A stretch of 62,186 nucleotides of DNA, the filler included, from Rhabdomonas costata (Eukaryota), in the NCBI GenBank assembly GCA_019059605.1. It is 32 parts of 32 records of this genome, joined end to end, with 100 filler letters (N's around TTAATTAATTAA, not from the genome) between each part and the next. Parts side by side here need not be neighbours in the genome. Positions count along the whole stretch, not along the records: positions 46,723 to 48,568 come from JAHMHO010008279.1; 31 more parts are not named here. One strand, 5' to 3'. The notes beneath the pieces were generated by a model. The model did not search any database. It worked only from the letters and a program-made list of their open reading frames with translations, and was not told the DNA's origin. A program made the position numbers and the translations under genes. Below are positions 2,425 to 62,186 of this stretch, piece after piece. Within the stretch, counting starts at the first letter, position 1, and each line of letters begins with the position of its first letter.

Positions 2425-3435
2425 GGCGGTGCCAGCACGGAGTCTGTGTACACCTGTTCTCGCGGGTGAAGTGGATGGAGTTGGATGATTACCAGCAGCC
2501 TGAGATCCTGCGCACCCCGCTGGAGGAGCTGTGTTTGCAGGTCAAGATGCTACAACTCGGTGCGTGTCCGTGTGTTTGTGTATATGGACGTCGTGGGCGT
2601 TGTTGGGTCGGGTTGTTGGGTTGGGAGAAGCAGCTTTCTAAGTTAGTCTTGTCTTTTTGTTTCGACCATTGGTTGCTCCATCACAGGCGGGATTCAAGAC
2701 TTCCTCAAGCATGCGATGCATCCTCCTCCGAAGTCCAGCGTGGATTTTGCGGTGGGCCTGCTGCAGGTCTTTGAGGAAGCCTCTTTTCCTGACCCAACTT
2801 TTTCCTAACCCAAACAATACTTCAACACTGGGCTCGGCTGGACCCTCCTCATAGGTAACATTTTCGTGATTCTCGGATTGGAGTGTTCCGCCACACTCAC
2901 TCACTCAATCACTCAATCGCATAAAATGGACTTTGGGGGGGGGGGAGTCTGAAAATATTCGCTGATTGTACTATGTCAATTTCGACCGTTTTGTAAACTG
3001 TTCTCTTTTTTGTTGTGTTATCAACCGCAATAATTACACTTATGCCACCACTTGTCGCAAAACCACAGAACCAAAGGAATATGGTTGTCATTAGTGAAAC
3101 AAGAACCTCTCAGAACAGCAAGTGATGGACTCTGTGGCGTGAGTATGCGTGGGTGGATGTGTGTGTGGGGGATATGTGTGTTGGTGTGGGTGTGTCATGT
3201 GTTTTTTGCGCCCAGGATATCCAGGCTCTGGACACCGAGCAGTGCCTGACCCACCTGGGCAAGCTATTGGCCTCGCTGCCGGTGCACCCCTTAGTGGGCA
3301 AGATGCTGGTTTTTGGCGCGATGTTTCGAGTACTGGACCCCATCGCCGTGATCGCGGCCTCGCTGTCCACGAAGTCCGTGTTCCTGCTGCCCTCGGACAA
3401 GCGCGGCAACGCCAACCAGGACCGCCGCGCCCTCG
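2425..3435 (+). CDS. DEAH-box RNA helicase (DHX36/DHX57-like), internal exons covering end of helicase C domain and HA2 domain
   Basis: Exons 2425-2559, 2687-2766, 3216-3435 with GT-AG introns in consistent phase give GRCQHGVCVHLFSRVKWMELDDYQQPEILRTPLEELCLQVKMLQLG-GIQDFLKHAMHPPPKSSVDFAVGLLQ-DIQALDTEQCLTHLGKLLASLPVHPLVGKMLVFGAMFRVLDPIAVIAASLS; PEILRTPLEELCLQ and LTxLGxxLAxLPVHP are hallmark motifs. Confidence 0.92.
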
Positions 3436-5878
3436 GTGCGTGCACACACACACACACACCCTCTGGATGGACTTCCGTGTTGTGGATGTGCTTGTGCGAG
3501 GTTGGGGATGAGAGCAATTCTTTCAGTGGCATGGCTTCTACCATTTTCCAAAGACGGCATGTTATAGCCATATGGCGTTGTGCAATCCGTGGGATGTACA
3601 CCGTTTCCAGCTCCCACGGATAGGAGCACGACACGAGCAGTTCGCACTGTGGTGCGAGTTTTTTGTGTGTACAGTGTAGAGTGAAGTTTTAGGATTAGGC
3701 TATGAAAATAATGGAGGACATTTCACACTGCAACAGCATAGGCAACAATCTAGAATTAAAATGCTATCGTTTTTTATGACGATCACACCACCCCCNNNNN
3801 NNNNNNNNNNNNNNNNNNNNNNNNNNNNNNNNNNNNNNNTTAATTAATTAANNNNNNNNNNNNNNNNNNNNNNNNNNNNNNNNNNNNNNNNNNNNAAATT
3901 TCCAGCGGACTTGAAAATCACAAAACACCTGGAACGGGGGACGGGGCCGAATCAGCAGAGCGCAGATGGCACAGATGGAATGAAAACATTTTTGTGTGGT
4001 GTTTCACAGTAACCATAACCCTGGGGCTTCGACATGGCAAATTCTTAATTCAGGTCAAGTGGTTCGAGTCCCAAAAACGAAGAAAAGCGTCACCTGCTGA
4101 GCATTCCGTCGACTTTGTTCTCAAGGACTTCGCTCTAGTTGCGATCCCGCCGTTCGCACTTGTGTGCGTTTGAGGGGGGAAAGAGGGGTGCTTTGTCTTT
4201 TTTTTTGTTCGTTTTTGTTCCTTTTGTTGGGGTTTGCATGTGGGTGGGTGGTTGCGGGCTTTCCGCTTGCAATGGATCTGATGGGCGCCCAGCCACACGA
4301 GAAGGTAATGTAAGGTAAGGTATATACATCTGTATGCGCTTGTGATTGTGCGCACCTGTCTCTCGTACTTTTTTCCTTCGGTTTCTTCGGAGAAGGGGGG
4401 TTTCCGTTTCTTTTCTTCCTTTCTTTCTTTTTCCATTGCCCTCTCTTCACTGACCACTTGACGTTTCACATGCCTTGCCTCCCACCACCCCCCGGCGGGC
4501 CCGCTTTAGCGCGGTGTCCCCTCCCCTTTTTCGTGCCGATTCGGGAAGTGCGCAGAGAGAGAGATGCAGGAGGACGCCCCCTCCACAGCGGTGGCGATGG
4601 GACTCGCTGCTGGCGAGAATGGTGCTCTCCAAAGGGCTCGTTGGTTGCTGTGCTGAGAACTGCCTTGTGCCGTGAAGCCCCCTTTTCCCCGTTCTTGGTG
4701 ATGTGGTTGCTTTGTAAGGTCTGTGATGGTGAAAGGTTTTTATGCGAGGGTTTTGAGGTTTGCTTCGCTGGTGTGAGCGATTGTCCCCGTGTTTACCGCA
4801 ATGTGCTTCCTGTGCCTACTTAAGTTGGTCACCGCGCAGTATCGGAAGAGTGTTTAGTGGAAACGCTGCGGTCTCCCATTCCGGAGATTCTTCTCGCGCT
4901 TGCCTTATGCTCTCTTTGGTGTTCTTGCGAGCGTCCCTTGTGTAGCTCGGCGGTTCTTCCCGGTTTGGTACCGCGCTGGCGTTGGTCGACCTCTGGTCCC
5001 CCCTCTTACCTTTTCTTTGTTGTGCTGCCCCACCAAGGTTTCGGTGGCCTAGACCTTTCCTCCAAAAAAATCAAAGAAGGAAATTCTTAATTTTTCTTGC
5101 GTCGCCTCTCCCAAAGACCTACGCTCACGCACGCACACTGCGCTCAACACATACTTTCTTTCCCTGAAAATGCAAGAAAAAAGCTGTGTGCGTCTCCAGT
5201 GCTGACTCCTTTTTCCTTTCACTGAGTAACTTCTTCTGTTTCAAAATGGAGGTTTAGGTGGGTTAATGAGCTGGACTCTGGGGAGAAGGAACCCATGAAC
5301 ATGAAACCCACCCAAAAGAGCCTGTTTCTGCTCGCGGAGATTTTTCAATTGCTTGAAGGATGGCAGATGCTGTAAGTTGCACCTCGCCATACGGGAAGGA
5401 GGAAGGTCCCAGGAAATATTTGTACGGAACCTGCTTCAGTTTCTACGTTTCTACGGCAAATGAAGGTCAGGGTTGGCCGTGGCTGACGTTGCGTAGCAAT
5501 CAATGGTGTTCGTGCTGCTGTGTTTGTGTCGCAGTCGTTTTTGTAGTTCCCCCGCGCACGTGCTCTCTCTCTCTCTTCTCTCACTTTTTCTTTCTCTTTT
5601 ATACGGTATTGCAATCCCACCCTCAATGTCCTCTGAGCTGCCCGCTGGAGCGACGACGACCTCTCAGCCCCACACAGGGGGCTACACGCGGCGCCGGCCC
5701 GCTCCCCTAACCCTACCCGTACCCTTCCCAGGGCCCACCACAANNNNNNNNNNNNNNNNNNNNNNNNNNNNNNNNNNNNNNNNNNNNTTAATTAATTAAN
5801 NNNNNNNNNNNNNNNNNNNNNNNNNNNNNNNNNNNNNNNNNNNGGGTTTGGGGACGAGGTGGGGGTGGGGGTTCATAC

Positions 5879-17295: not shown

Positions 17296-17643
17296 CTACG
17301 GACAATACTCTGCGAATCCCCCCAGAAAAACATACAAAAAGTGGCCGTAGAAGGAGTGCGTAGTGGAAAGCAGACCTTCAACGGTATCAGCTTATCGGAG
17401 GGGATGCTGGAGGGGAAGCCAACAAAACNNNNNNNNNNNNNNNNNNNNNNNNNNNNNNNNNNNNNNNNNNNNTTAATTAATTAANNNNNNNNNNNNNNNN
17501 NNNNNNNNNNNNNNNNNNNNNNNNNNNNTGGGTGTACGACCAAATATCGAAAATTGTGGTGCCGTGTTTTCTTTTCACTGCATGCTTTTCGTTTAACAAC
17601 GTTTTGACGGGATCCTCGGAGTGGTTGTGCACGGTACGCACAG

Positions 17644-18783
17644 GAGCGGACCCTAGTCAGACCCGTCGAGACTATGCCAGCCCCCCGCTGTTCATTGCCA
17701 GCCAGAACGGCCACACGCAAGTCGTCGAGCTACTTCTCCGCTGCGGTGTGCACCCATTACTATGTGTTCGTATGTATCTGTGTGCGATGAAGAATGCCCC
17801 GTGCTTGTTTGGATGTGGTGTAAGTGAACATGTCAAGTATGGGGGGTGTCAAGGTGTGCACCAATTTGTATAATGCGGTTGCGCTTGTGCGACACTGCTT
17901 CTTCCAAGTGCGATGAACCAAAGGAGGATGGAAATTCCTGGTCTTCGCCGTTGAACGAGACTCCAATCAATCATTCCCGCCGAGGGAATTTATTTCTCCA
18001 ATCTGAGGCACCTGCTGGCCCCCATGTTCCACAGGGGAAGACCTGGTTTGGGGTGGTTCCATAGCTGCCTTCAGCCTACCGCCTAAGCGAGACCAGCGTG
18101 GTAGACCATGAATATGGAATCGAGCCTGATTTCGGCGCCTGACAACATCCCGTTCCGGGGATCACCCTTTCTCACCCAACTCTGTCTACGTGTGTGTGTG
18201 TGTGTGTGCGTGTGTGCTTTGGAATCGGCTGGAATTAAGGCTCCGCTCGAGAGACTCTGCTGCTCGCTATTGCCGCGATTGCAGCTTTTGCAAACGTCGT
18301 TGCGTGCAACTTTTTGTTTTTGTCGGGGGGTCTCTGGCTCTGGCCCCAGCATCAAATAGATTTTACAAGGAGCACAACGAAGAACCTCAGGTGAAATGCA
18401 ACAGAAACGGATTGAAACTGGAAAAGGGGCGTGAGCGGGTACGAAGGAGGAAGGAGAGGGAATAGGGAGAGGGGAGAGGGTGGCTTGGAAAGTCGAAAAG
18501 AGTCACGCTGTTTCGATGAATTACGGTGTGGTTGGATGCAATGCAGAACGGAGCCCAAGCCTTCTGCCCGACACCGGAGTGGGCCGGAAGGCTCCTCGAA
18601 GTTTCAAGCCTAGCCGAGCTTTTCCCGCTGAACTGAATGGTGCCTCACTCCAGCTCAAAAATAAATCAGGGGCGAACCCCAACTTGGGCAAGGACAAGCG
18701 CGGTCTCAGTGGTGGGGCCCTTCCTCTGTGGAATGCTGCCGGAGAGGGCCACGTCCGCGTTTGCGAGCTGCTGCTCCGCGCCG
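17644..18783 (+). CDS. Ankyrin-repeat protein, two exons each encoding one repeat
   Basis: Exons 17644-17745 (GADPSQTRRDYASPPLFIASQNGHTQVVELLLRCG) and 18670-18783 (GANPNLGKDKRGLSGGALPLWNAAGEGHVRVCELLLRAG), both CAG..GTGTG bounded, phase 1. Confidence 0.92.
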
Positions 18784-34799: not shown

Positions 34800-35372
34800 G
34801 TTCAATGGAGTGGTGCATTTTTTGTGGGCGAGGGTCGTGAGTAATAGTGCGTATACCGCTTCCATGCGATCCATGCGATCACGGAACCCTGTTTGGTACC
34901 GTTAGGTTCCGTTAGGTCCGTTCCCAAGTTTTTGCGTAACTGAGTAGNNNNNNNNNNNNNNNNNNNNNNNNNNNNNNNNNNNNNNNNNNNNTTAATTAAT
35001 TAANNNNNNNNNNNNNNNNNNNNNNNNNNNNNNNNNNNNNNNNNNNNTTTTTTTGGTTCACTGTGGTCTTTTGACAGCTGCCGTGCTACCGGCAGCTGTG
35101 TGGCTGCTCAAGATTGACTGCTTTGCGTGTGTGTATGTGGGTACATGTGTGGTTTACATGTGTGTGGGTTCGTGTGAAGGAGGTAGCGGGTATCGCTAAG
35201 GGCTTCGCCTTGGGGTTTTAATTATCCTGTGATCGCCCCCTCCTTGTCGATAGATTGGATGGGCCAGAGTTGCAGCAACAAAGTTTTCCACTGCTGCTAG
35301 AAATTATTTCTCCATCCCGACGCCAGCAGAGTTTCCTTGTGTCTTTCCTTTTCCTTTTCCTGCCTCCCACAG

Positions 35373-36893
35373 GCATGCATCGCGCTGAACATTGTGGTGA
35401 TGGCGATGGCCTACTATGGGATGTCCGACGGGATGAAGAACGGGCTGGACCTCGCAAACACCGCGTTCACCTGCCTCTTTGGGGTGGAGGTGGTGGTGCG
35501 GCTGCTCTCTCAGGGCCCGCGGCACTACCTCACCAGTCCCAACAACCTCTTCGACCTCACCATTGTGATCATGGGGGTGCTGGACGACTTCGTGCTGTCG
35601 AGCGCGTCGGGGATCTCCGCGCTGCGGGCCTTCCGCGCGATGCGCGCGCTGCGGGTGCTGAAGCTTGGCAAGAACATGAGCCAGCTGCGGCGGCTGTTCC
35701 GAGTGCTGAAGACCACCCTACCCCTGGTGCGGGCCTTCGCGGTGATCTGGCTGATCGTCGTGGTGGTGTTCTGCCTGGTGGGAATGCAGCTGTTCAGCGG
35801 GAAGATGGACTTCGAGGACACTGAGAACTACTGCGATGGGTTCTGCGAGAAGCCCCGGGCACACTTTGACAATCTGGGCTGGGCCTTCCTCACGGTGTTT
35901 CAAATGTGCACCATCGAGAACTGGTGCGTTTCCTTGTCTCTTGTTTTTGCATACTTCTGCTCCAGTTCTGGTGTGAGGCATCCGAATTGTTGTTTGTGGC
36001 ATAATTTCTCACGAAACTCCAGTTAGCTCCATACCCACGGAAACGTTGTCATGAACGACACTTCCGACTCTTGGGCAGCAGTGCTAACCGTTCCGTAGGA
36101 TGCCAAAGTATATAAGTGCAGTGAGAGCGGAGTGTGGTGCACCACAAAGCACGACAATCAAAGTGGGACTATGCGCCGAGAGGGGAGATGGGCGTGGGAC
36201 ATGGGTAACCGCTAACAGTGGTTGCGTTGGTGATCTCCAAGTGAGTGCTTTTCCATGACGCTGCTTTCTTTCCCTCAGGAACGACGTTGAGGTGTGCGCG
36301 CATGCCCTGATGGGAGGTGGCGCTGCGCTCTGTTGTTGCTGGTACAGCTGGTATTTGAGAGCTTGCCTTCCGTGGGCAAGGTGAACTGCGGCTTGGGGTT
36401 AGGGTTAGGGTTAGGACTACTTAGTGACGTGGTGGCGTGCAAATGCACTGAGAGAGTGATGTGATCGCGTGTTGGCGGTGACTTAACGTCAGTGTCAGGA
36501 TTTGCAACTTGCAACCATGTGTGGTGGTAAATTCTCTATCCTTTTCTGTCGTTTGCTTGCCTATTCAAGGCCTCCTTTTGGTTCGTCCCCCGATCTCTTT
36601 GACACCACAGTATAGCATGGTGGTCAGCCGAGGCCTTCCCGCTGCGCTGTTTTCCGTGGTTATTGTCGTCCTGGGTGGGTACGTCCTCTCGCAAATGCTG
36701 CTGGCCATTATCGTCAGCGGGTTTCAAGAGGAGCTCAAGAACGAGACCCAAAAGGCCCAGCGCAAGGTCGCGCTGAGTGGGTGGGTGCTGAGCAAAATGA
36801 AGCTGTCGAAATCCTCCGCCAAGTCCCTGCGAAGTGGGGGCGGCGCCCCCAACTCCGTGGCGTTTGCCCAGCAGGCCCTCAACCACACAAAAC
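35373..36893 (+). CDS. Voltage-gated Ca2+/Na+ channel alpha subunit, one S1-S6 repeat (repeat II-like)
   Basis: Exons 35373-35923, 36279-36291, 36611-contig end: S1 CIALNIVVMAM, S3 NLFDLTIVI, S4 SALRAFRAMRALRVLKLGK, S5 FCLVGMQLFSGK, pore RAHFDNLGWAFLTVFQMCTIENWNDVEY, S6 VLGGYVLSQMLLAIIVSGF. Confidence 0.93.
36393..36415 (+). repeat. Short interstitial telomere-type repeat (TTAGGG)n in an intron
   Basis: TTGGGG-TTAGGG-TTAGGG-TTAGG. Confidence 0.6.
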
Positions 36894-43111: not shown

Positions 43112-43934
43112 TTACACCAATGGGTACGAGCTGTCCGAGAGGATGCCGCAGGTCCCGCAAACCGTGATGTTGCCCACATCCCCATCGCACGCCGAGCCGT
43201 CCTTGGGGCGGATGTCCAGGCCACAACGTTTCTGCTCATGGAGGGTGCGGCGAAGGCGGATGTAGCCCTGCTCGCCCCATTTTGGGCTCCAACTGACACA
43301 AGAAAAAGGAAAGGTGATACATTGGGTGTTTTGGAAGGTGAAGAAGAACGGATTCTACAATGCGTCACTGAGAAAACCGGCTAAATGGAAAAAAGAAGGA
43401 CCGATGAAAAAGAAGATGTACGTGTTCACAAACCAGCCAACTTCGATGATACCCCAGCTAGGGACTCCAGGACAAATTTGCTGTGGAAAAAGAGCAAACG
43501 TGTAGCGTTAAACCTGTTGCGGACAATCCAGTAGGCGCCATCCTTGAAGTCAAACCCACAGCCCACCAGCTGAACCTGTTCAGAGAAAATCCGCGGAGTT
43601 GTGCACACGGGTATTGAAAGAGTAATGTGCCTTGGGCCTAGTCGCATCACCGTCAACCAGAATGGGTAAGGATACCTGCTCCTGGAATGCAACTTGCTAC
43701 GATCATCACTGCATACCGCATGGTTGATGATCGGGTTGACTTGGTCGCAGCCATCGAAGACCCCATCCTCGTAAAGGTGCCAGTTCGAGGCATCCACAGA
43801 GATCGAGATCGGCCCAACCTCCACAAGGGCCTTCAGCAGCGGCTTCACTTTGTTGGTGGGCAGGCGGACCACCCCAGAGACGGTCGCCACGACTTTAGTG
43901 GAAGTGTTGACGAAGTGGCATGCCTCGTTAACGC
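43112..43934 (-). CDS. Papain-family (C1A) cysteine peptidase, last three exons
   Basis: Exons 43934-43717, 43575-43514, 43292-43112: GPISISVDASNWHLYEDGVFDGC...INHA|VQLVGCG...YWIVRNS|WSPKWGEQGYIRLRR...CGILSDSSYPLV*; catalytic His and Asn motifs present. Confidence 0.95.
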
Positions 43935-44854
43935 CTGCCGACAAGATGAGATTCAAGAGTTGCATCTGGTAGAACAGAGCTTCGACCACCGTCCGATCAA
44001 ACCCCCCTGCGAAGGCTTTCCGCACGTTACGACACCTGCAGCTTCGGAAAAGACGCCACTAAACTTCCCAATGGGCCCGTCATAGCACATATATAAGCAC
44101 ATACTTTTTTTTACCACCCGCCTTTTCTTGCCTGAGGCTCCTGCCGCTTTTTCGAGTTTTTAGGGCCTTGCTGCAAAAAATCGCTGCGCGCCAGTCATTA
44201 CACCCTTGGCCAGTATCTGCATGCTTGAGGATGGGCTGCCCGTCTTGAAAACTTTTCCTGCCTCTTGGAATTTTTTTTCGCGCAGCGGTGTGGCTGGGGT
44301 GCACCCCAATGCCCGGAATAACCAAAGGTTCGTGTGTTGTGCATGGTGAAGAGAAGCCACGAACACAAACAAAAACTGGTTTTTGCTAGGTTAATTATAA
44401 ATGGCCAGGTAAAATATGCCAGCACCCTTGAAGTGACTTTATTTCTATCCGACCTAGACGATTGTTTTTGCTTTAAACCTGAAAATTATGCTGGCTATGG
44501 GCGGACAAGTAGGATAGCATTAATTTAGCGTGAAGGCCAGGTCCGCGCCGCAGCAGGAGCGAGCGACTGGGGGCGGGGACGTGACCTTGGGAGCCTTTGA
44601 ACTTTTTCCAAACATACGCCCATAGTAAAAATTGTTGCCGGTGGTACTGGACCAAACCCCCCAACCACACCCAACACNNNNNNNNNNNNNNNNNNNNNNN
44701 NNNNNNNNNNNNNNNNNNNNNTTAATTAATTAANNNNNNNNNNNNNNNNNNNNNNNNNNNNNNNNNNNNNNNNNNNNTGTGTTGGGTTGTTGGGGGAGGT
44801 AAGTAATTGGGAAAAGGGGTTACGTGCGGATGGGTGGATGGGTGGAGGGCTAAC

Positions 44855-45664
44855 CTGCATCACCATGTGGAAGAGCGCCTTGGTCGGGTGAGTCATGTAC
44901 ACGGGCCCCTTGTACTTAGTGTGCTGGGTGAAGTACGGTGTCGCCCCGCAGTGGTCCAGGTGGAAGTGCGTGACTAGAAGGAGGTCGATGGACTCCTGTT
45001 GGTACGGGTGAGAAGCACAGTGTAGAATCCAACCCTCATATGGTCACCACACACCGGGGCACACACAGATGCAATTAACAAAGGAGCAGAAACCACTTCA
45101 CCCAATCATCGGCGGCATGGCAAGCCCTTGGGGGGCAGGTGTGGGGAGCAACGGCAAATTATTCGCTTTGCGACATGGTTTGCCACATGACAAACATCAA
45201 CCGTAACATAATCTTCAATGCATTGCATCCCCACACAGTCCAGCATGCATTTACAACGGAAACGGAAATATGACCACCACTCCGGGGGTTCCAGAAAATC
45301 CGTCAAGCAGTGACTTCACTGCACCGTTGTCACACTCCAGTGCACACAGCGCAGCACTTTTCAGGGGATGAAGGGCCAACTGAGGGTCACCCCTTTCCTC
45401 TTTTTTCCGAGCAGCCCGCTGTGCACAAGGTACCGGGTCGATGTCGTCAAAGTAGGGCAAGGAGTCGAAGCCGGAGTGGGCGGGGTGCACCCCGCAGTCG
45501 AACATCACGGCCTTGCCCTTGTACCGCACCACCACGCAGCTGCGGCCCACCTCCTGCCCGCTGCCCAAGGGAATCACCTCCAGAAGCTCCTGCGGGGGGA
45601 CGGCCCCACCGGCGGTCCCCCCAGCTCCCCTCTCCGGGGCTGCCCCCAGCACATGCACGGACAT
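44855..45664 (-). CDS. CPSF3: Cleavage and polyadenylation specificity factor 73 kDa endonuclease, first two exons
   Basis: Exons 45664-45434 and 44995-44855: IPLGSGQEVGRSCVVVRYKGKAVMFDCGVHPAHSGFDSLPYFDDIDP|ESIDLLLVTHFHLDHCGATPYFTQHTKYKGPVYMTHPTKA; metallo-beta-lactamase HxHxDH motif; SLPYFD/IDLLL favours CPSF3 over INTS11. Confidence 0.93.
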
Positions 45665-45688
45665 CTCCGCGGCGTATGCTCAACGTAG

Positions 45689-45747: not shown

Positions 45748-47055
45748 CAGGCTGTCTCCCAAAAAGGTGAGGAAAAAAGACGGATCGCGAACACGGTTTC
45801 TGGACACATATGCTCGAATTCTTGAGGAAAGAGCAGAAAAGATTGGGTTGCCTTTTTACAGTCAGTTCTTGTTGCAAGCTCACCTAATCTGTTCAAAGTC
45901 TAAGCCACCAGTTCACAACGTGAATCACCAAGCCACTGGTTTTGCAGGCTTTCCCGAAAAGCGGGGAAAGAGTGCAGAAGAGGCACCCCAAGGAGTGGGC
46001 TTCAAGGACGGGGGGGCATCATCTTCCGGTGTTCTTCTGGTGGCGGGCTAGTGTATTTTTTCTGGGAGGGGGCCGCCATCGTCCCCGCCTCAGCAGCCCT
46101 ACCTCCGGCCCTTAACTAATCCAATCCTTGTTGTTGGCAAAGTGCAGCAAGGAATAAGTTCTTTTCACGCATACGTACCGATGTAAAAGGCAACAGAAAT
46201 GTACTACACCACCCCATGACCGTATTACACCGTTATTATACAGTGTAACAGGGGTAGATTTTAATACTCTGTGGCGATAAATGGCATGCACACCTGCGTC
46301 TAGGTTGGCCGGGCCCACGTGGTTTAGTTGTGTCCTTCGTCGTCGCTACGTCGTCGCTACGTTTTACACCGTATAACAGCACCAGACCGTACAACCGCGT
46401 TATACGGTATACGGCGTCATACCCTTCGACGCCCCCCCCCCCAATAGCCCGACCGTTCCGGTGGTGTGCATTGTGTCGCACTTAAAAGAAACCTACTGTC
46501 GCTAACCAACGCATGTTACCGGATTTTTCACTCGATCGACATCCCAACTAATGTCGTCGTTACCACCATCGTTACCACTGGTTTCCATTGAATTCCCAAC
46601 AACACCAAACTCACCCAATACANNNNNNNNNNNNNNNNNNNNNNNNNNNNNNNNNNNNNNNNNNNNTTAATTAATTAANNNNNNNNNNNNNNNNNNNNNN
46701 NNNNNNNNNNNNNNNNNNNNNNGGGGGAAGTGGGGCCCACTATCCCCCCTCGGTTGCGGGACTCCTCAGCGTTAATTGGGTTAAGTTGGTAGAAACTAGC
46801 ATTTCAGAGAGGGGCCTCTCAGTAACTAACTTACTCCTGGGATTCTCAGGGACTAAATCAGGGCTGCACCGCCATCGGGTGCGATCCACCGCGATACCGC
46901 GATTTGGCCTCACCAGTTTCTCCTATTGTGCGTTTAAACAGTTTTTCGCATTTGAGCCTCCTGGTTCGCTTGACATTTCAGCGTTGCTGCCAATGTCAAT
47001 ACTCAAGCACCTCGGTTGCTTTCAGACACTGGTTTCTTTTTTTTCTGGTTCGGAA

Positions 47056-47363
47056 ATGGCTGGCTCCAGCGAGGAAGCCTACTTGAAAGAAGCAATGGTC
47101 TCAGAGCTGTTCGAGGAGATGCGAGGTGCACTTCTCAAGGAGCGTCCGCAGAACCCCAGCACGTTCCTGCACTCCTGGCTGGAAAAGAAGGAAAGCCCCT
47201 TTGAGGGTTCCGCCATTTTCGAACCTGCTCCCGCACCGATGCGAAGGCTGGGCTCCTTTTTGACAGCAATTCATTCGCATAATCAGAGCTTGGTCCGTCG
47301 TTGTTTGCTGATTGGGTGTGGCGCAGTTGGGATGGCTTGCGCTTACAGCAGCAGCATCGAAGG
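47056..47363 (+). CDS. First exon(s) of an RIIa/Dpy-30-like docking domain plus L-lactate dehydrogenase-like fusion
   Basis: MAGSSEEAYLKEAMVSELFEEMRGALLKERPQNPSTFLHSWLEKK (YL....V..L.......LL.ERP..P..FL...L) followed by RCLLIGCGAVGMACAYS (LDH GxGAVGMACA). A possible in-frame 60-nt intron at 47207-47266 would not break the fusion. Confidence 0.72.
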
Positions 47364-47769
47364 GTTTTGCTACGGCTTCGCTTTCTTTTTTCGCAATTAG
47401 TGACAGACAGAAAATCTTCAATTGCAGACGGCCAGGGGTGAAACGACTGGCGGTGGTGGGTCCCTCAAGCAAGCAAGCATTGTGCATTGCACAGATTTTT
47501 CAAGTAAAGCGCATCAAAGAACAACCATCCCTCCTTGCGCGCGCGTTTGAGTGGAAACTCGAGAGTAACCACCACTCTAAAAAAAAAAAAGAAAAGGAGA
47601 GAAATTCGGCTTGGTCGTGAAACTCGCCCATCCTGTCTAAGCACCTAGGATCTTGGACCGCTCCCCAAGACATCCAGGACCAGCAAAAACTGGCCATTAG
47701 TGTGGGGATGGCAGAGGTCACCTAACCCTGTTTCTAAGATAACGTTAGGAGGGGTCCTAACATCGACAC

Positions 47770-47995
47770 CTTCCTTGTTCTGTGTGACCCACGTGGTTCC
47801 TCTCTGAGGGCTCAGCAGGAAGTGAGACACCCCTGGGGTGCACAGCGCGACCTGGTGCGCCCCCAAAACCCCCAGGCCCAGGGAAAGCGGACGCAGGGCC
47901 TGAAGCCCACCCGCCACCCGCAGGCACACCAGCAGCACGGGCATTGTGGCCAAGGTGAAGAAGAAGTTCCAGTGCACCCCATACTCACTGTGGAC
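47770..47995 (-). CDS. GWT1: GPI inositol acyltransferase GWT1/PIG-W, internal exon
   Basis: CAG..GT bounded exon VHSEYGVHWNFFFTLATMP...FLLSPQRGTTWVTQNKEG; EYGVHWNFFFTL and N[RK]EG are diagnostic. Confidence 0.93.
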
Positions 47996-49814
47996 CTGCA
48001 CGGCATTGGGACATTATCCAGGTTGTCGGGAAGTCCTAAGGCCTTTGGAGATATCGACCGAAGGTGGAGGGTGGTTTTCGATATTTAACTTCATTTATAC
48101 TGCAAATTGGACACCGACCGGAAGGGAAACGGTAACAGCTTCGGGAAACTTTCGTAAAAAGACCGACTCCTCCCTCAGGGAATATCAGGTTGCTTTCTGT
48201 GGTGAAGAACAAACAACACCCCAGCACATCAATATTCACAACACTTTTGTCTTGGTATATTTCGCAGGTCTCAAAGTCTGTTGGAGTCCCACATATTCCT
48301 TCACTTTCCCTCCGTTTTTGTAGCAACCCGGAAGGCAAGACAGAGCACAACAGCACAGCACCACGAGATGCAATGGGCGGGAAGGCGTTCAACAACGGCG
48401 CAAGACAAGCACGCAATCAAAACCCAAAGCCCAATCCAGGAAGACAAAAACATGCAACAGGTTGTCCTCCCGAAATCAGCAAAGAAAAAAGTCCCTTAAA
48501 CACAAAAGCAATGGGGTGGACATGGGTATGCCTCGGGGTAGCCCAGCCGCTTCAGTGACACCAACACANNNNNNNNNNNNNNNNNNNNNNNNNNNNNNNN
48601 NNNNNNNNNNNNTTAATTAATTAANNNNNNNNNNNNNNNNNNNNNNNNNNNNNNNNNNNNNNNNNNNNTTTTGGGTGGGAGGAGGGTGGGGGTGGGGCAG
48701 TTCTGAATAAAGCATCGCCCAGCCCACCTGCTCCAGCTGCGCCGCGGACTGGCAGCTTAACATCTAAACTAATAGGATGCCTTTTGTCAGGTCAGAAAAA
48801 AAGACAGGAACGGACCATGCTTCTTCCTGCAGCCACACGGTTGCCTCCCCTTATGGAAAGGCGGGACTGCTGCGAGGACGAGCCCTGCGAAAGAACAACC
48901 GAATGGCCAGAGTGTGGGTGGGATTAGTGTGGTCACCACCGTTAACCACCAACAGCGCGGTGGAAAAGAAGAACCCCGTGTTTCAAGAATTGGTTTTCTG
49001 CTGACCTGTCGATTCTGGATCTAAATCCTTCCTTTTCGGGTTGCAACTTCTAAGAATGGGTGTGCCATTGCAAAGCATTTGACTTGGGACACAGAGAAGA
49101 AGAATGGATGGAACCAGACGCGAACTGGGCTCGTAGGACGGGGAAGCGCCAATCACCTGGTGATGAAGGTGAGGAATATTTGCTGAACTGCGGTTTAGAT
49201 ATTTAGAAGAGCGCTGTAACAGAAGTAATTTTCCGAGTTTGCCTGCTCTTTGTGTTTGTTGTCTCTTCTTCTGTTCTCTCTTCTTTATGAAACACGTTGG
49301 ACGTTGAAAACACGTGAAGGACGCAGACACCGTAACTTATTTGACTCCAGGATTTTCACAGTCCTTTTCTCCCTCTTTTTTCCTGTGATGAAAGGAAGAG
49401 TAACCTTCACAAATTGAGGAAGGGCACGGAGAGGGGCACACCGCCATCCCCATAGACTGAGAGAGCTGGACCCCTTTATCTTCTTGGTCCACCGTTCTAT
49501 CATTGTTCACCACCCGCAACTGCAAATCTGCAAAAAGAAAACGAATGATGCCAAGGCTAAGAAGGTACATCACCATGTCAACCACCCGGAACCTCACAAT
49601 CGAACAAAAAATGCAAAATATTTCAGAAGCAAAAAGGATTGTTGGTATTCAAATGTTGAACACACTCATGCAAAAGCATACCAAACCCGGAATCGCAGCG
49701 ACTACTTCACAGGCCGTTGCGAACCCACAGTGGCTGCAGGTGTGTGCGAGCTGCAGATATGACCGTCGAACTCGTTGGGAGTGGTCTTCAGTGAGGAGGT
49801 TGGGCAGGAAAGGA

Positions 49815-55041: not shown

Positions 55042-55617
55042 TTATCGGTGCTTCGTCATCTTCCCCGGACACCTCTCGGAGAGCTTTGGCATGGGCTGGG
55101 CAAACCGTATCCTGTGCACCGCCGGACACTCCGCAACCATCATCCCATGGTGGTACACCAGAAACCGGGTGGTGGTGGAGTGGCGATGCGGCCGCCACAG
55201 AGTGTGTCCGGAGGTGAGGTCTGCGACCTGAAACACCCCGGGGGCCTGGAACCCACATAGCTTGGCATGGGGGTGGCCCTTGCACAGTGGGCACAAGGGT
55301 CGGGCAGCCGGGGCGAGGTGGAACCACCGTGTTAGGCAGGCCTGGCAGAAGCCATGGTAGCACGGGAGAAGGAAGGTGTCCACTTGGGCGTGGAGACAAA
55401 TGCAGCACTCCCCGAAGGGAAGGGAGGGGGCAGAGGCCGGAGGAGGGGAGGACGAGGATGGCTCTGGAGGCCCTTCCTCCGGAGTGACAGAGGTGGCTGT
55501 TGAGGAGACGGTGAGAGCGCTCCGAATGGAAGTGGACGTGCTGGTGGAGCTCACGGAGTGGGCGTCCCAGTCGAGCTCACTATCGCTGGCGACGGTGATC
55601 ACCTCGGAGGACGACAT
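55042..55617 (-). CDS. Intronless C3HC4 RING-finger protein with N-terminal SIM-like motif
   Basis: 191-aa ORF MSSSEVITVASDSELD...CCICLHAQVDTFLLPCYHGFCQACLTRW...CPLCK; complete RING-HC ligand set. Confidence 0.85.
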   Translation of the reverse strand: MSSSEVITVASDSELDWDAHSVSSTSTSTSIRSALTVSSTATSVTPEEGPPEPSSSSPPPASAPSLPFGECCICLHAQVDTFLLPCYHGFCQACLTRWFHLAPAARPLCPLCKGHPHAKLCGFQAPGVFQVADLTSGHTLWRPHRHSTTTRFLVYHHGMMVAECPAVHRIRFAQPMPKLSERCPGKMTKHR

Positions 55618-56536
55618 TCTTTTGGTGGGTGTGCTCAGCGGTTGGGGATGGGAAGGGGACGCCACCACCAATGACTAACGTAGAAGAGAACAGGCCCTTG
55701 TAAAAAAGAAGTAGAAAAACAGAGAGCATATCAGCTGACACGATGGGTGCCTCAACCCAACCCAGCCTTGACCTTGAACAGAATATTCTTTTCCGAAAAC
55801 TCGTCAGCACATTTGAACCTTTCATTCTCGCGCAACTAGCCAGGAAGTGGAAAGAGTTCAGCATGAATAACCATCCCAGAAAGGACTTGAATTGGGCATC
55901 TCAATTTCCGCCAGCCGGTATTCCCGTCGGTTCCTAGGCATCTCCGCCCAACATCTTCTTTGGCTTTGGTGGGCGTAATCAGACCCTTGATATGAAGCCC
56001 TCCCAGAAGAAAGAGGGGTAAACAAGATCTCAACGCACGGCAACAAACCCGACTGGGTACCCCCCTCTTAGCTTCGAAGACTTCACGCAATACTCAGGAG
56101 GACAGGAGCGACTCCCTTCGGCAACAACACACAACAACTGCAGCAACGGCGAGTGGTGAATGCACTGCTATTCACAGAAGATCGAAGAGCGTGAATGAGA
56201 GGGGGGGCACAAAACGGAAACGCAACCAGAGGAGCGGGATGAGCTCCCGCGACGGGTCACCAAAAATAGGGTGCGCGCAGGCACATACCCACACACAGCA
56301 ACACAAACAAGAGAACGCGGCGCAACAATGCCTCCTCCTCACCACCAACCCNNNNNNNNNNNNNNNNNNNNNNNNNNNNNNNNNNNNNNNNNNNNTTAAT
56401 TAATTAANNNNNNNNNNNNNNNNNNNNNNNNNNNNNNNNNNNNNNNNNNNNAAGGTGGCGTGGACTGGGGGCGCAAAGGTTTTGCGGTTTGAGGAGGCTG
56501 GTCGGTGGTTAACGTGGTGCGACTAGTTGGGTAGGT

Positions 56537-60225: not shown

Positions 60226-60566
60226 GTGAAAACAAACCCACNNNNNNNNNNNNNNNNNNNNNNNNNNNNNNNNNNNNNNNNNNNNTTAATTAATTAANNN
60301 NNNNNNNNNNNNNNNNNNNNNNNNNNNNNNNNNNNNNNNNNTGTGGTGAATAAGCATTTATGCGGGCGAGTCAGGACAATGCAAAAGATTATTTCATCCA
60401 TTGCACTAAACAGCGATTACATTGAGTTACCTTGACTTCTTATCCTCTGTCTACCGAAATGTCATTAAGAGTAGATGCAAGGCAGCGAGCGTTTCGCTGT
60501 CTTTGCTGTGGCCCGTGTGCGGCTCTCCCCCTTTCCACTCACTCACTGTCTCTCTCTCCATCACAG

Positions 60567-62186
60567 GAGGCATGGCGACGTTGGTTGGGACGGCTCCAAA
60601 CCTGATGCTGAGTTACATTCTCTCAGTGAATTTTCCTGAGGCCCCTCCCCTCTCCTTCTTTGACTGGTTCCGGTTTGGGCTGCCCTTTTCGCTGGTCTTC
60701 TTCTTCGCCACCTACGGCCTGCTGTTGTCAAGGTGCTGGAAATATTTTTTCGGGGGGGCGTATCGGTTTGTAGCTTTTGAATTTTCCAGTATTTTTCAAA
60801 ATCGATGCTAGATGGCATCCCCGCACAAACGAGGTGCCAATCGTTCTGGTGGGCAACGGCAAGTTTTCAGGAACACAACCGTTGAATGGTTATCAGAGCT
60901 GCCACGAAGTTTCATGGCAGGACTCGGAAATCAAAACCTGCTTCTTTGCCCTTGCAGAGCCTCTCCGGAGTGGAAGCGGATTTCTTGCTCGGACTGTCCG
61001 CGGAAGTGAACATCTGTTGAAAAAGACGTGCCGTCGGGTGTGGTGAGAGGAAAATTCTGCCATTGGACCATTAGTCTCTGATGTACTCCACACGCGCTGG
61101 TCCGGTCTGCTGCTTCCTGCCGCCCTCACTGTCTAGAGCACGTCACGGTTCCCCCATGGACATCCTTCGCCAGAGCCTCCGCCGGAGCCGTCTGGCTCCT
61201 GCTGGGGCCTCGCGTCCCCGCATTGACAGCCAAGCCCCCTCTACTGAGCCAGCGGTTTCCCCTCCCGAGTGTGCTGGAGTGGCCTCGGGGCCGTGCCTAC
61301 CTGCAGAGGGGGTGCCAGAAGCTTTGGGTGAAGGGGTGACCCGTTGCTCCACTGCGGGGCTGAATCGGAGCCTGCGGCAGCAGTACACGGAGCTGGGACC
61401 GATGTCCCGAGAGGAACGCGTGGTGCTGGGCGCTCTGGTCACTTTGGCCGTGCTGTGGGTGAGCCGCGTGGGTCTGGGTGTGCCTGCGTGTCTGCTCGAG
61501 ACCTCTGAGAGACTGCGAAGTCTTCACTCGATTCCGTGTCCCAAATCCGTGCTTTCAAATCTGTGTTTCCTTTATGCCGGACGTCCTTATCTCCAACTCC
61601 ACCCAGAATCGAGGACGTAAGCCCAACGCTTTGATCAGTATCTCTGCAAACTGTGCTTCTTCTTTGGCTGCTGCGCAGGTCCCATCCCCGGGTGGTCCCA
61701 GGCGCTGCCCTCGGACTTGCGCGTTTCCGTGGATGACGCCACCGTTGCCATAGCGGTCGTGATGCCGTTGTTCTTCTGGCCACGCTCCCGCACTCACCCG
61801 AAGCCGAGCCCCGCCCCAGCCCAATCAGACACCACCAACACCTTGGCTGGGACATTTTCTGGCCCCGCATCTGCCGCGCTCACCGCACCCGTAATGGCCG
61901 ACTTGCCCACCACTCCTTCCCCGCCAGTTCAGCCCGAGGAGCCATGCGATGAGGACGACGGCGGAGAGACTGGCCAGGACGCCCCCGTGGGCCCTGAGGG
62001 GCCCCCAGTGCCGGCCACGATGGTGGTGCCGTTGCTGCGATCCCGACACTCATTCAACTCTCCGGAGGATGCAGTGGCCGAGGCTCCCGAGCCCATGGCT
62101 CCGGAACCAGCACCTCCGGAAGTCGAGCCTTTGGAGGAATTTCACTCGCAAACTGCTTCCCAGCGGACGGGCCTGGTGTGCACCTT
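60567..62186 (+). CDS. SLC13/DASS family di/tricarboxylate or sulfate transporter, three internal exons
   Basis: Exons 60567-60732, 61137-61477, 61679-end: GGMATLVGTAPNL...FPEAPPLSFFDWFRFGLP; LRQQYTELGPMSREERVV...LWVSR; IPGWS...DDATVAIAVVMPLFFWP, all typical SLC13 motifs. Confidence 0.92.

Follow-up and report, generated by a model that had tools for sequence, protein, structure and literature searches.

A first coding exon that places a probable Dpy-30-type docking domain N-terminal to a lactate dehydrogenase

In eukaryotes, and most of all in their cilia, Dpy-30/RIIa domains serve as a general plug that attaches enzymes to scaffolds, and the enzymes known to carry such a domain either handle nucleotides (PKA, adenylate kinases and nucleoside-diphosphate kinase, NDK) or catalyse one glycolytic step (enolase). 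In the radial spoke of Chlamydomonas, RSP2 and the NDK-bearing RSP23 are both bound by RSP3 through their Dpy-30 domains, and it is the Dpy-30 domain of RSP23 that tethers the NDK to an amphipathic helix of RSP3, as the passages of PMC3494852 on these proteins describe. Dimerisation/docking (D/D) domains are also present on AK5, AK8 and, outside animals, on enolase, and the authors link the D/D superfamily to motile cilia (in the relevant passages of PMC8339350). [quoted passage not shown] Here we describe an exon, located in a window of 62,186 bases (the whole stretch of DNA that was analysed), in which a putative Dpy-30-type domain is followed in the same frame by what appears to be the start of such an LDH. 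An LDH equipped with this plug would extend the principle of enzyme anchoring to redox balance.

At 47056-47363 on the plus strand lies the exon with which the coding part of a spliced eukaryotic gene begins, a gene whose product has a docking domain N-terminal to an LDH. The parts of this exon (exon 1) are given below together with their similarity to the homologue P0002, a protein of 386 residues.

47056-47363, plus strand: exon 1, the start of the Dpy-30-LDH coding sequence, with 102 full codons and 2 bases (phase 2)
47074-47190, plus strand: Dpy-30-type D/D domain, helix-loop-helix, residues 7-45, assigned from Pfam, PDB and AlphaFold2 (AF2) comparisons
47191-47295, plus strand: linker and putative counterpart of the N-terminal arm seen in cluster II LDHs, residues 46-80, the least conserved part
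47296-47363, plus strand: start of the Rossmann fold, that is strand beta-A and the glycine-rich loop, then M-A-C; 19 of 22 residues identical to P0002
47364-47365, plus strand: splice donor GT at the 3' end of exon 1; the similarity to P0002 stops at Gly103

The frame that opens with the ATG at 47056 yields 114 residues before a stop. An alternative in-frame ATG at 46993 would lengthen the N-terminus by 21 residues; since the Met of P0002 is aligned about four residues upstream of the ATG at 47056, the latter represents the more economical start. The codon of Gly103 is interrupted by the donor (GG/GT), and reading on past the donor gives 11 unrelated residues and then the stop at 47398-47400. 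The two strings that had led an earlier, sequence-only reading to propose a fusion do lie in this one plus-strand frame: YLKEAMVSELFEEMRGALLKERPQNPSTFLHSWLE corresponds to residues 9-43 and IGCGAVGMACAYS to residues 86-98. The distance from the docking motif to the glycine-rich loop, which had been put at about 30 codons, is 42 codons.

The evidence that carries the fusion comes from P0002. This protein was found in a word-indexed search of 5.8 billion proteins, limited to the longer ones, where it was the sole match among 70 candidates (E 1e-17, 50% identity, 97% of the query), and an exhaustive HMMER search of 1.84 billion representatives connected it to exon 1 at E 3.2e-18. In a pairwise BLASTP comparison the two sequences were collinear, with 53 of 106 positions identical (E 5e-31), residues 4-103 of the exon being aligned to residues 8-111 of P0002, a similarity well outside the reach of chance. 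Starting within the part that resembles exon 1 and continuing past it, Pfam recognises in P0002 both Ldh_1_N (residues 92-227, profile positions 4-141, E 1.7e-43) and Ldh_1_C (residues 230-383, E 1.1e-29). Since P0002 carries the full Ldh_1_N and Ldh_1_C domains in this position, the architecture is real: the order docking domain, linker, LDH exists in a full-length enzyme, and the proposal of an N-terminal fusion to an LDH is upheld. The best solved relative of P0002 is 8ab2 (E 1.4e-93; next best 1.3e-78), an enzyme from Cyanobacterium aponinum as stated in the pertinent part of PMC10583557. When aligned to 8ab2, P0002 keeps FDELIMND with the beta-B Asp and also GEAMDLQHG, and it shows the AQKPGETR loop, DSARFR and IIGEHGD. 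We take FDELIMND, AQKPGETR, DSARFR and IIGEHGD to be the cofactor, substrate and catalytic positions of LDHs, and judging from these motifs P0002 looks like an active L-LDH. A single-sequence AF2 model of P0002 had a mean local confidence (pLDDT) of 39.6, which is too low to use. For the gene in the window it is the homology of exon 1, by itself, that suggests membership of the LDH family.

The fusion is rare, with one other protein carrying it among the 1.84 billion representatives: the exhaustive search returned four matches, and only P0002 is fused. A word search with region 1-112 of P0002 recovered P0002 itself alone among 104 candidates, a word search over 'near' lengths gave none out of two candidates, and a search of the ESM Atlas brought no usable match. 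The bacterial and archaeal genome contigs yielded 74 pattern matches with no fused form among them, and one distant relative resembling LDH or malate dehydrogenase, with 29% identity over residues 264-380. Full-text literature searches, judged by titles and the starts of abstracts, returned no description of a Dpy-30/RIIa-LDH fusion among the papers listed, and neither 'lactate' nor 'dehydrogenase' occurs in the main text of PMC8339350. These searches are in line with the sequence-only reading, which knew of no description of the architecture.

Within the D/D region, exon 1 and P0002 have the same residue at 19 of 39 positions. All 13 PDB sequences that phmmer matched to exon 1 at E ≤ 10 are of the D/D type, 12 of them by name: nine human DPY30 sequences (E 4.3e-4 for 3g36 to 3.9e-3), radial-spoke FAP385 (0.0096), central-pair DPY30 (0.15) and PKA RI-alpha (0.6). 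The thirteenth, 6chg_E, is a chain of yeast COMPASS which we take to be the Dpy-30 homologue. A two-sequence profile built from both N-termini matched DPY30 in the PDB at E 2.5e-4. The exhaustive search also ties exon 1 to P0004 (E 1.9e-6) and P0005 (E 8.3e-4), short proteins built from two D/D-like units; P0005 lies over the Pfam cut-offs for RIIa (34.5 bits) and Dpy-30 (33.3 bits). The AF2 model computed from the two-sequence alignment (mean pLDDT 85.6) contains helices at residues 3-29 and 34-44 and thus the helix-loop-helix fold of about 40 residues, and when the 50-residue model was compared with the PDB by Foldseek, chains of PKA, DPY30 and axonemal D/D proteins filled almost all top ranks. 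The 50 residues were further predicted to form a homodimer with a score of 0.32, exactly at the mark (best of three controls 0.00), a value that may reflect memorised structures and shows likeness only, because DPY30 dimers are solved structures. Among proteins solved as pairs of one chain, 21 of 30 come up to this mark, as against 0 of 23 among those solved as single chains (for eukaryotes, 17 of 29 versus 0 of 30). At least 96% of the contacts were common to the homodimer runs, with a pLDDT of at least 72, and the predicted interface is symmetric and involves residues 6-46. Each of these lines is weak on its own; they agree with one another, and we take the N-terminus to be a diverged domain of Dpy-30 type within the RIIa clan, in keeping with the docking-type N-terminus of the sequence-only reading.

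As side observations on this domain, parts of Leishmania donovani glucose-6-phosphate dehydrogenase chains (9vp7, 7zhy and 7zhv) occupied Foldseek ranks 17, 34 and 42 with non-significant E values of 2.5-6.4, and P0003, a protein of 776 residues from the exhaustive search, has a hydrophobic N-terminus and approximately eight tandem repeats of about 65 residues. The unit 'RP/SPxNPxxWLxxWL', which is Dpy-30-like, recurs in every repeat of P0003, where Pfam scores Dpy-30 at 51.6 bits in 5 stretches, and such repeated use of the Dpy-30 motif is unusual.

Downstream of the domain, the linker matches P0002 at 13 of 35 residues, with a gap, and residues 46-80 may be the equivalent of the cluster II arm. 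The NAD-binding GxGxxG loop can be read in the translation directly as G87-C-G-A-V-G92, and it is part of an 18-residue run, RRCLLIGCGAVGMACAYS, which is identical in P0002 and represents the start of the Ldh_1_N match of that protein. Exon 1 has the Cys of G-M-A-C and an extension of about 82 residues (88 in P0002), in line with the two marks of cluster II given in the sections of PMC10583557 on this group. The product of the complete gene would then be a canonical L-LDH of the cyanobacterial-like cluster II type, as far as sequence comparison can tell. We put the probability at roughly 60% that exon 1 belongs to a live gene for a cluster II L-LDH which is preceded by a Dpy-30-type domain of about 40 residues and a linker of about 35 residues and is docked by this domain to a scaffold. 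That the exon is live is suggested by its intact frame, by a donor placed exactly where the homology ends and by the very strong conservation at the beginning of the Rossmann fold.

Several results weigh against this reading, and the first of them concern the domain profiles. The Pfam Dpy-30 profile scored the first 50 residues at 21.0 bits (E 2.7e-4), 1 bit under its cut-off of 22, and the 114-residue read-through translation at 18.5 bits; RIIa reached 14.5 bits on the first 50 residues. For P0002, either whole or as residues 1-55, no Dpy-30 or RIIa match was listed by Pfam at E ≤ 10, and none of the 58 Foldseek matches of the 50-residue model was found at E ≤ 0.001 (best 0.66). The 114-residue translation also gave no Ldh_1_N match at E ≤ 10; because only about 22 residues of that domain are in the exon, this miss reflects length, not divergence.

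A further objection is that no LDH body is present in the window. The window is made up of 33 pieces of about 1,845-1,848 bp with 32 identical 100-nt linkers between them (44 N, TTAATTAATTAA, 44 N), and since the pieces are artificially joined, adjacent ones are not genomic neighbours. Exon 1 sits in the piece 46723-48568 (1,846 bp), whose end at 48568 is the end of the contig, and 1.2 kb of this contig remain 3' of the exon. When P0002 was used as a tblastn query against the whole window, exon 1 was the only match (next best E 0.12), and within the contig nothing besides exon 1 appeared at E ≤ 1000. Likewise, phmmer (--max) run against the 1,562 six-frame open reading frames of at least 25 residues gave one match, the next best having an E of 1.4. 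The key residues of the LDH catalytic body, namely the beta-B Asp, Gln102, Arg109, Asp168, Arg171 and His195, are not encoded anywhere in the window. What does follow in the contig is an exon of another gene:

47995-47770, minus strand: internal exon resembling GWT1/PIG-W (glycosylphosphatidylinositol inositol acyltransferase), Pfam PF06423, E 2.6e-18

This exon (66.6 bits, profile positions 211-280 of 437) is well formed, with CAG as its acceptor and GT as its donor. Its position is 406 nt downstream of exon 1 on the opposite strand, and the two genes are convergent, which means that each would be placed within an intron of the other gene, that is, the genes would be interleaved. Interleaved genes, a chimeric contig and an orphan LDH fragment are all possible explanations of this arrangement. 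In addition, none of the 10 recognisable exons of the window has a lower G+C content at third codon positions (GC3) than exon 1, with 0.63 as against 0.67-0.89 in the other nine, a value compatible either with a weakly expressed gene or with relaxed constraint.

These observations also favour the view that exon 1 is an orphan, left by a Dpy-30-LDH gene as a shortened duplicate or a decaying piece in an antisense GWT1 intron, for instance a copy of a prematurely ended transcript, from which no LDH would be made. Along with the absent body, the antisense GWT1 internal exon and the low GC3, which drops to 0.54 and hence near the non-coding level in the linker and Rossmann half, it could draw on an A-rich run 215 nt past the exon. 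We nevertheless regard an orphan exon as unlikely. From the ATG onwards the frame stays undamaged up to a GT donor, which falls just where the homology stops, and a Rossmann start that is identical at 19 of 22 residues to a homologue only 50% identical overall suggests continued selection. Nor is the lack of a second exon as telling as it may seem: no other GWT1 match was found in the remaining 26 minus-strand frames of at least 22 residues in the contig, and the GWT1 exon is flanked by at least 0.55 kb and by 0.9 kb with no further recognisable GWT1. Long introns are thus to be expected here, and little weight attaches to the lack of an exon 2 in the following 1.2 kb.

The A-rich run itself (47579-47595) consists of 12 A followed by GAAAA. 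On the minus strand the same bases form a pyrimidine tract with an AG behind it, a possible acceptor. An origin of exon 1 as a retrocopy was considered and rejected: the sole direct repeat in the flanks, at 47005 and 47639 with 10 of its 11 nt identical, is at chance level, with about 5 such pairs expected by chance per 1 kb, and is not beside the A-run.

The same arrangement could have arisen by mis-assembly, in which case a 5' exon of an LDH gene was joined to an unrelated GWT1 fragment and the exon itself would still be real. The pieces of about 1.85 kb are very short, as would be left over from a fragmented assembly, and a convergent interleaved layout is unusual; against this, no junction marked by a repeat or by low complexity is evident in 47364-47769 save the short A-run, and we consider a chimeric contig very unlikely.

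The sequence-only reading had a different answer to the question of what follows exon 1. It extended the locus to 47503 with a speculative second exon at 47428-47503, in which the beta-B Asp would be replaced by Gly, and took this as a hint of a docked pseudoenzyme or a changed cofactor preference. The layout is formally sound: the 64-nt intron (47364-47427) has canonical GT..AG borders and fits in phase, and 47504 offers a GT donor. By eye, an ungapped comparison of the 25 residues with the beta-B region of P0002 gives three identities. In BLASTP, however, the alignment of the spliced product with P0002 stays at residue 103, the point where the homology ends exactly at the donor. Of the 87 AGs downstream, 47 are followed by 26 or more open codons in that phase, and Pfam returned no relevant match for the proposed exon. 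In a functional gene, it would be strange for the LDH signal to vanish almost entirely just after 18 identical residues in a row, and P0002 keeps both the Asp and GEAMDLQHG. We find this version scarcely credible; of the span 47056-47503, the exon at 47056-47363 stands, and the stretch 47364-47427, the second exon and the Asp-to-Gly change built on it fall away.

The remaining features of the window lie in other pieces, several of which hold single recognisable exons of eukaryotic genes:

3126-3623, plus strand: fragment of a DEAH-helicase HA2 ratchet domain (Pfam, E 3e-09)
17529-17873, plus strand: ankyrin repeat fragment (Pfam, E 1.2e-04)
35301-36026, plus strand: large exon from a gene for a voltage-gated cation channel (Ion_trans in Pfam, E 6.2e-39; GC3 0.89)
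43426-44058, minus strand: fragment of a papain-family protease (Peptidase_C1, E 1.2e-09)
55042-55674, minus strand: RING finger fragment (Pfam, E 5.5e-08)
60410-60811, plus strand: CitMHS-like transporter fragment (E 8.8e-07; 28.8 bits, below the cut-off of 31.9)

A further frame, 45251-45679 on the minus strand, resembles by eye the N-terminus of a CPSF73-type metallo-beta-lactamase nuclease; Pfam gave no match to it at E ≤ 0.01. The occurrence of single exons on such short pieces indicates that the source is a fragmented assembly of an intron-containing eukaryote. The G+C content is about 50% all along the window, Rfam gave no match in the whole window at its gathering scores, and the tandem repeats of the contig with exon 1 amount to two trivial rows.

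If exon 1 belongs to a live gene for a docked LDH, as we prefer, the following course of events can be envisaged. Two N-terminal domains would pair into the X-type four-helix bundle that is typical of Dpy-30/RIIa, so that an LDH tetramer with its four N-termini would form two bundles, and each bundle would have a groove able to take up an amphipathic helix from a scaffold protein. Helices bound by domains of this family are those of Ash2L/Bre2 (SDI), RSP3 (AH-D) and the AKAPs. The LDH would in this way be concentrated at the scaffold, where it could supply NAD+ from NADH beside the local glycolytic production of ATP. By precedent, the scaffold would most likely be axonemal, like those to which nucleoside-diphosphate and adenylate kinases are docked by Dpy-30 tags, and the remaining LDH exons would be situated outside the 1,846-bp contig. 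Anchoring to a scaffold or a flagellum and local regeneration of NAD+ are suggested here by analogy with Dpy-30/RIIa-tagged kinases and enolase. The domain might also dock elsewhere, for example to an Ash2L-type helix of COMPASS. Going one step further, exon 1 and P0002 could stand for a rare, lineage-restricted LDH family with a Dpy-30 domain of its own that plugs into RSP3/AKAP-type axonemal helices, an extension which we offer tentatively and hold to be rather doubtful.

The gene could also be whole and its Dpy-30 domain serve a purpose other than docking, either linking LDH tetramers to each other or clamping the N-terminal arms, with consequences for oligomerisation or allostery. The domain is predicted to self-pair, and the cluster II/cyanobacterial extension contacts the neighbouring subunit and affects the fold, the compactness and the dynamics of the allosteric core, as reported in the corresponding part of PMC10583557. 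P0002 matches the fructose 1,6-bisphosphate-activated enzyme of C. aponinum at R173, H188 and Y190 (ARFR, HAYIIGEH), positions taken from the same part of PMC10583557, so that regulation by way of the extension stays a live rival. However, the Dpy-30/RIIa domains characterised in the passages of PMC3494852 and PMC8339350 cited above pair in order to bind a helix of a partner protein. Such a role is compatible with docking and not exclusive of it; as a substitute for docking we judge it distinctly improbable.

What would make a docked LDH worth having is the supply of NAD+. Glycolysis confined to a narrow compartment stalls without local NAD+ regeneration, and an anchored LDH would show one solution to this problem for a flagellum or some other scaffolded site. 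In mammalian sperm, LDHC and LDHA are present at the fibrous sheath, so that lactate fermentation takes place near flagellar glycolysis and recycles NAD+; this association of LDH with the flagellum is non-covalent, with no docking domain known in the LDH polypeptide. If the doubtful extension to a family of axonemal LDHs is true, an NAD+-recycling step would join a flagellar glycolytic module beside the D/D-tagged enolase, adenylate kinase and NDK, and the LDH would be the first redox enzyme known on an AKAP-type anchoring system. The protein would also provide a clean case for the effect of a long N-terminal extension on the assembly and allostery of LDH. The value of the window itself is smaller, as it holds the first exon only and the locus may be interleaved or incomplete.

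Compared with DPY30 and the axonemal Dpy-30 proteins (RSP2, RSP23/NDK5, FAP385 and central-pair DPY30; PF05186, RIIa clan), exon 1 has in common the helix-loop-helix of about 40 residues and the pattern YL...V..L...L....RP.NP..FL..(Y/W)L. DPY30 and axonemal proteins are its best PDB sequence matches, and a symmetric homodimer is predicted for it. Exon 1 differs from the members of this family in its score, 1 bit under the Pfam cut-off and with the copy in P0002 unrecognised, in the N-terminal position of the domain and in the cargo, which would be an LDH. In RSP23 it is a metabolic enzyme, the NDK, that a domain of this kind holds at the RSP3 helix, in the account given in part of PMC3494852. 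AK5, AK8 and non-metazoan enolase, of the PKA-R-like D/D superfamily, follow the same logic of a small D/D module on a soluble nucleotide-handling or glycolytic enzyme; their domains, unlike that of exon 1, are classed as RI-like (R1D2) and not as Dpy-30-like in the passages of PMC8339350 that treat them. The LDH of Cyanobacterium aponinum (8ab2/8ab3), a cyanobacterial relative of the cluster II enzymes, has the Cys of G-M-A-C in common with exon 1, and the cluster II extensions described alongside it in PMC10583557 are 20-40 residues long, with no folded domain reported in that part of the paper, whereas the extension of exon 1 has about 82 residues, the first half of which is of the D/D type. 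Thus, metabolic enzymes tagged with D/D domains are known and LDH as the cargo is new, which makes this locus a further member of a familiar principle and not a new kind of system.

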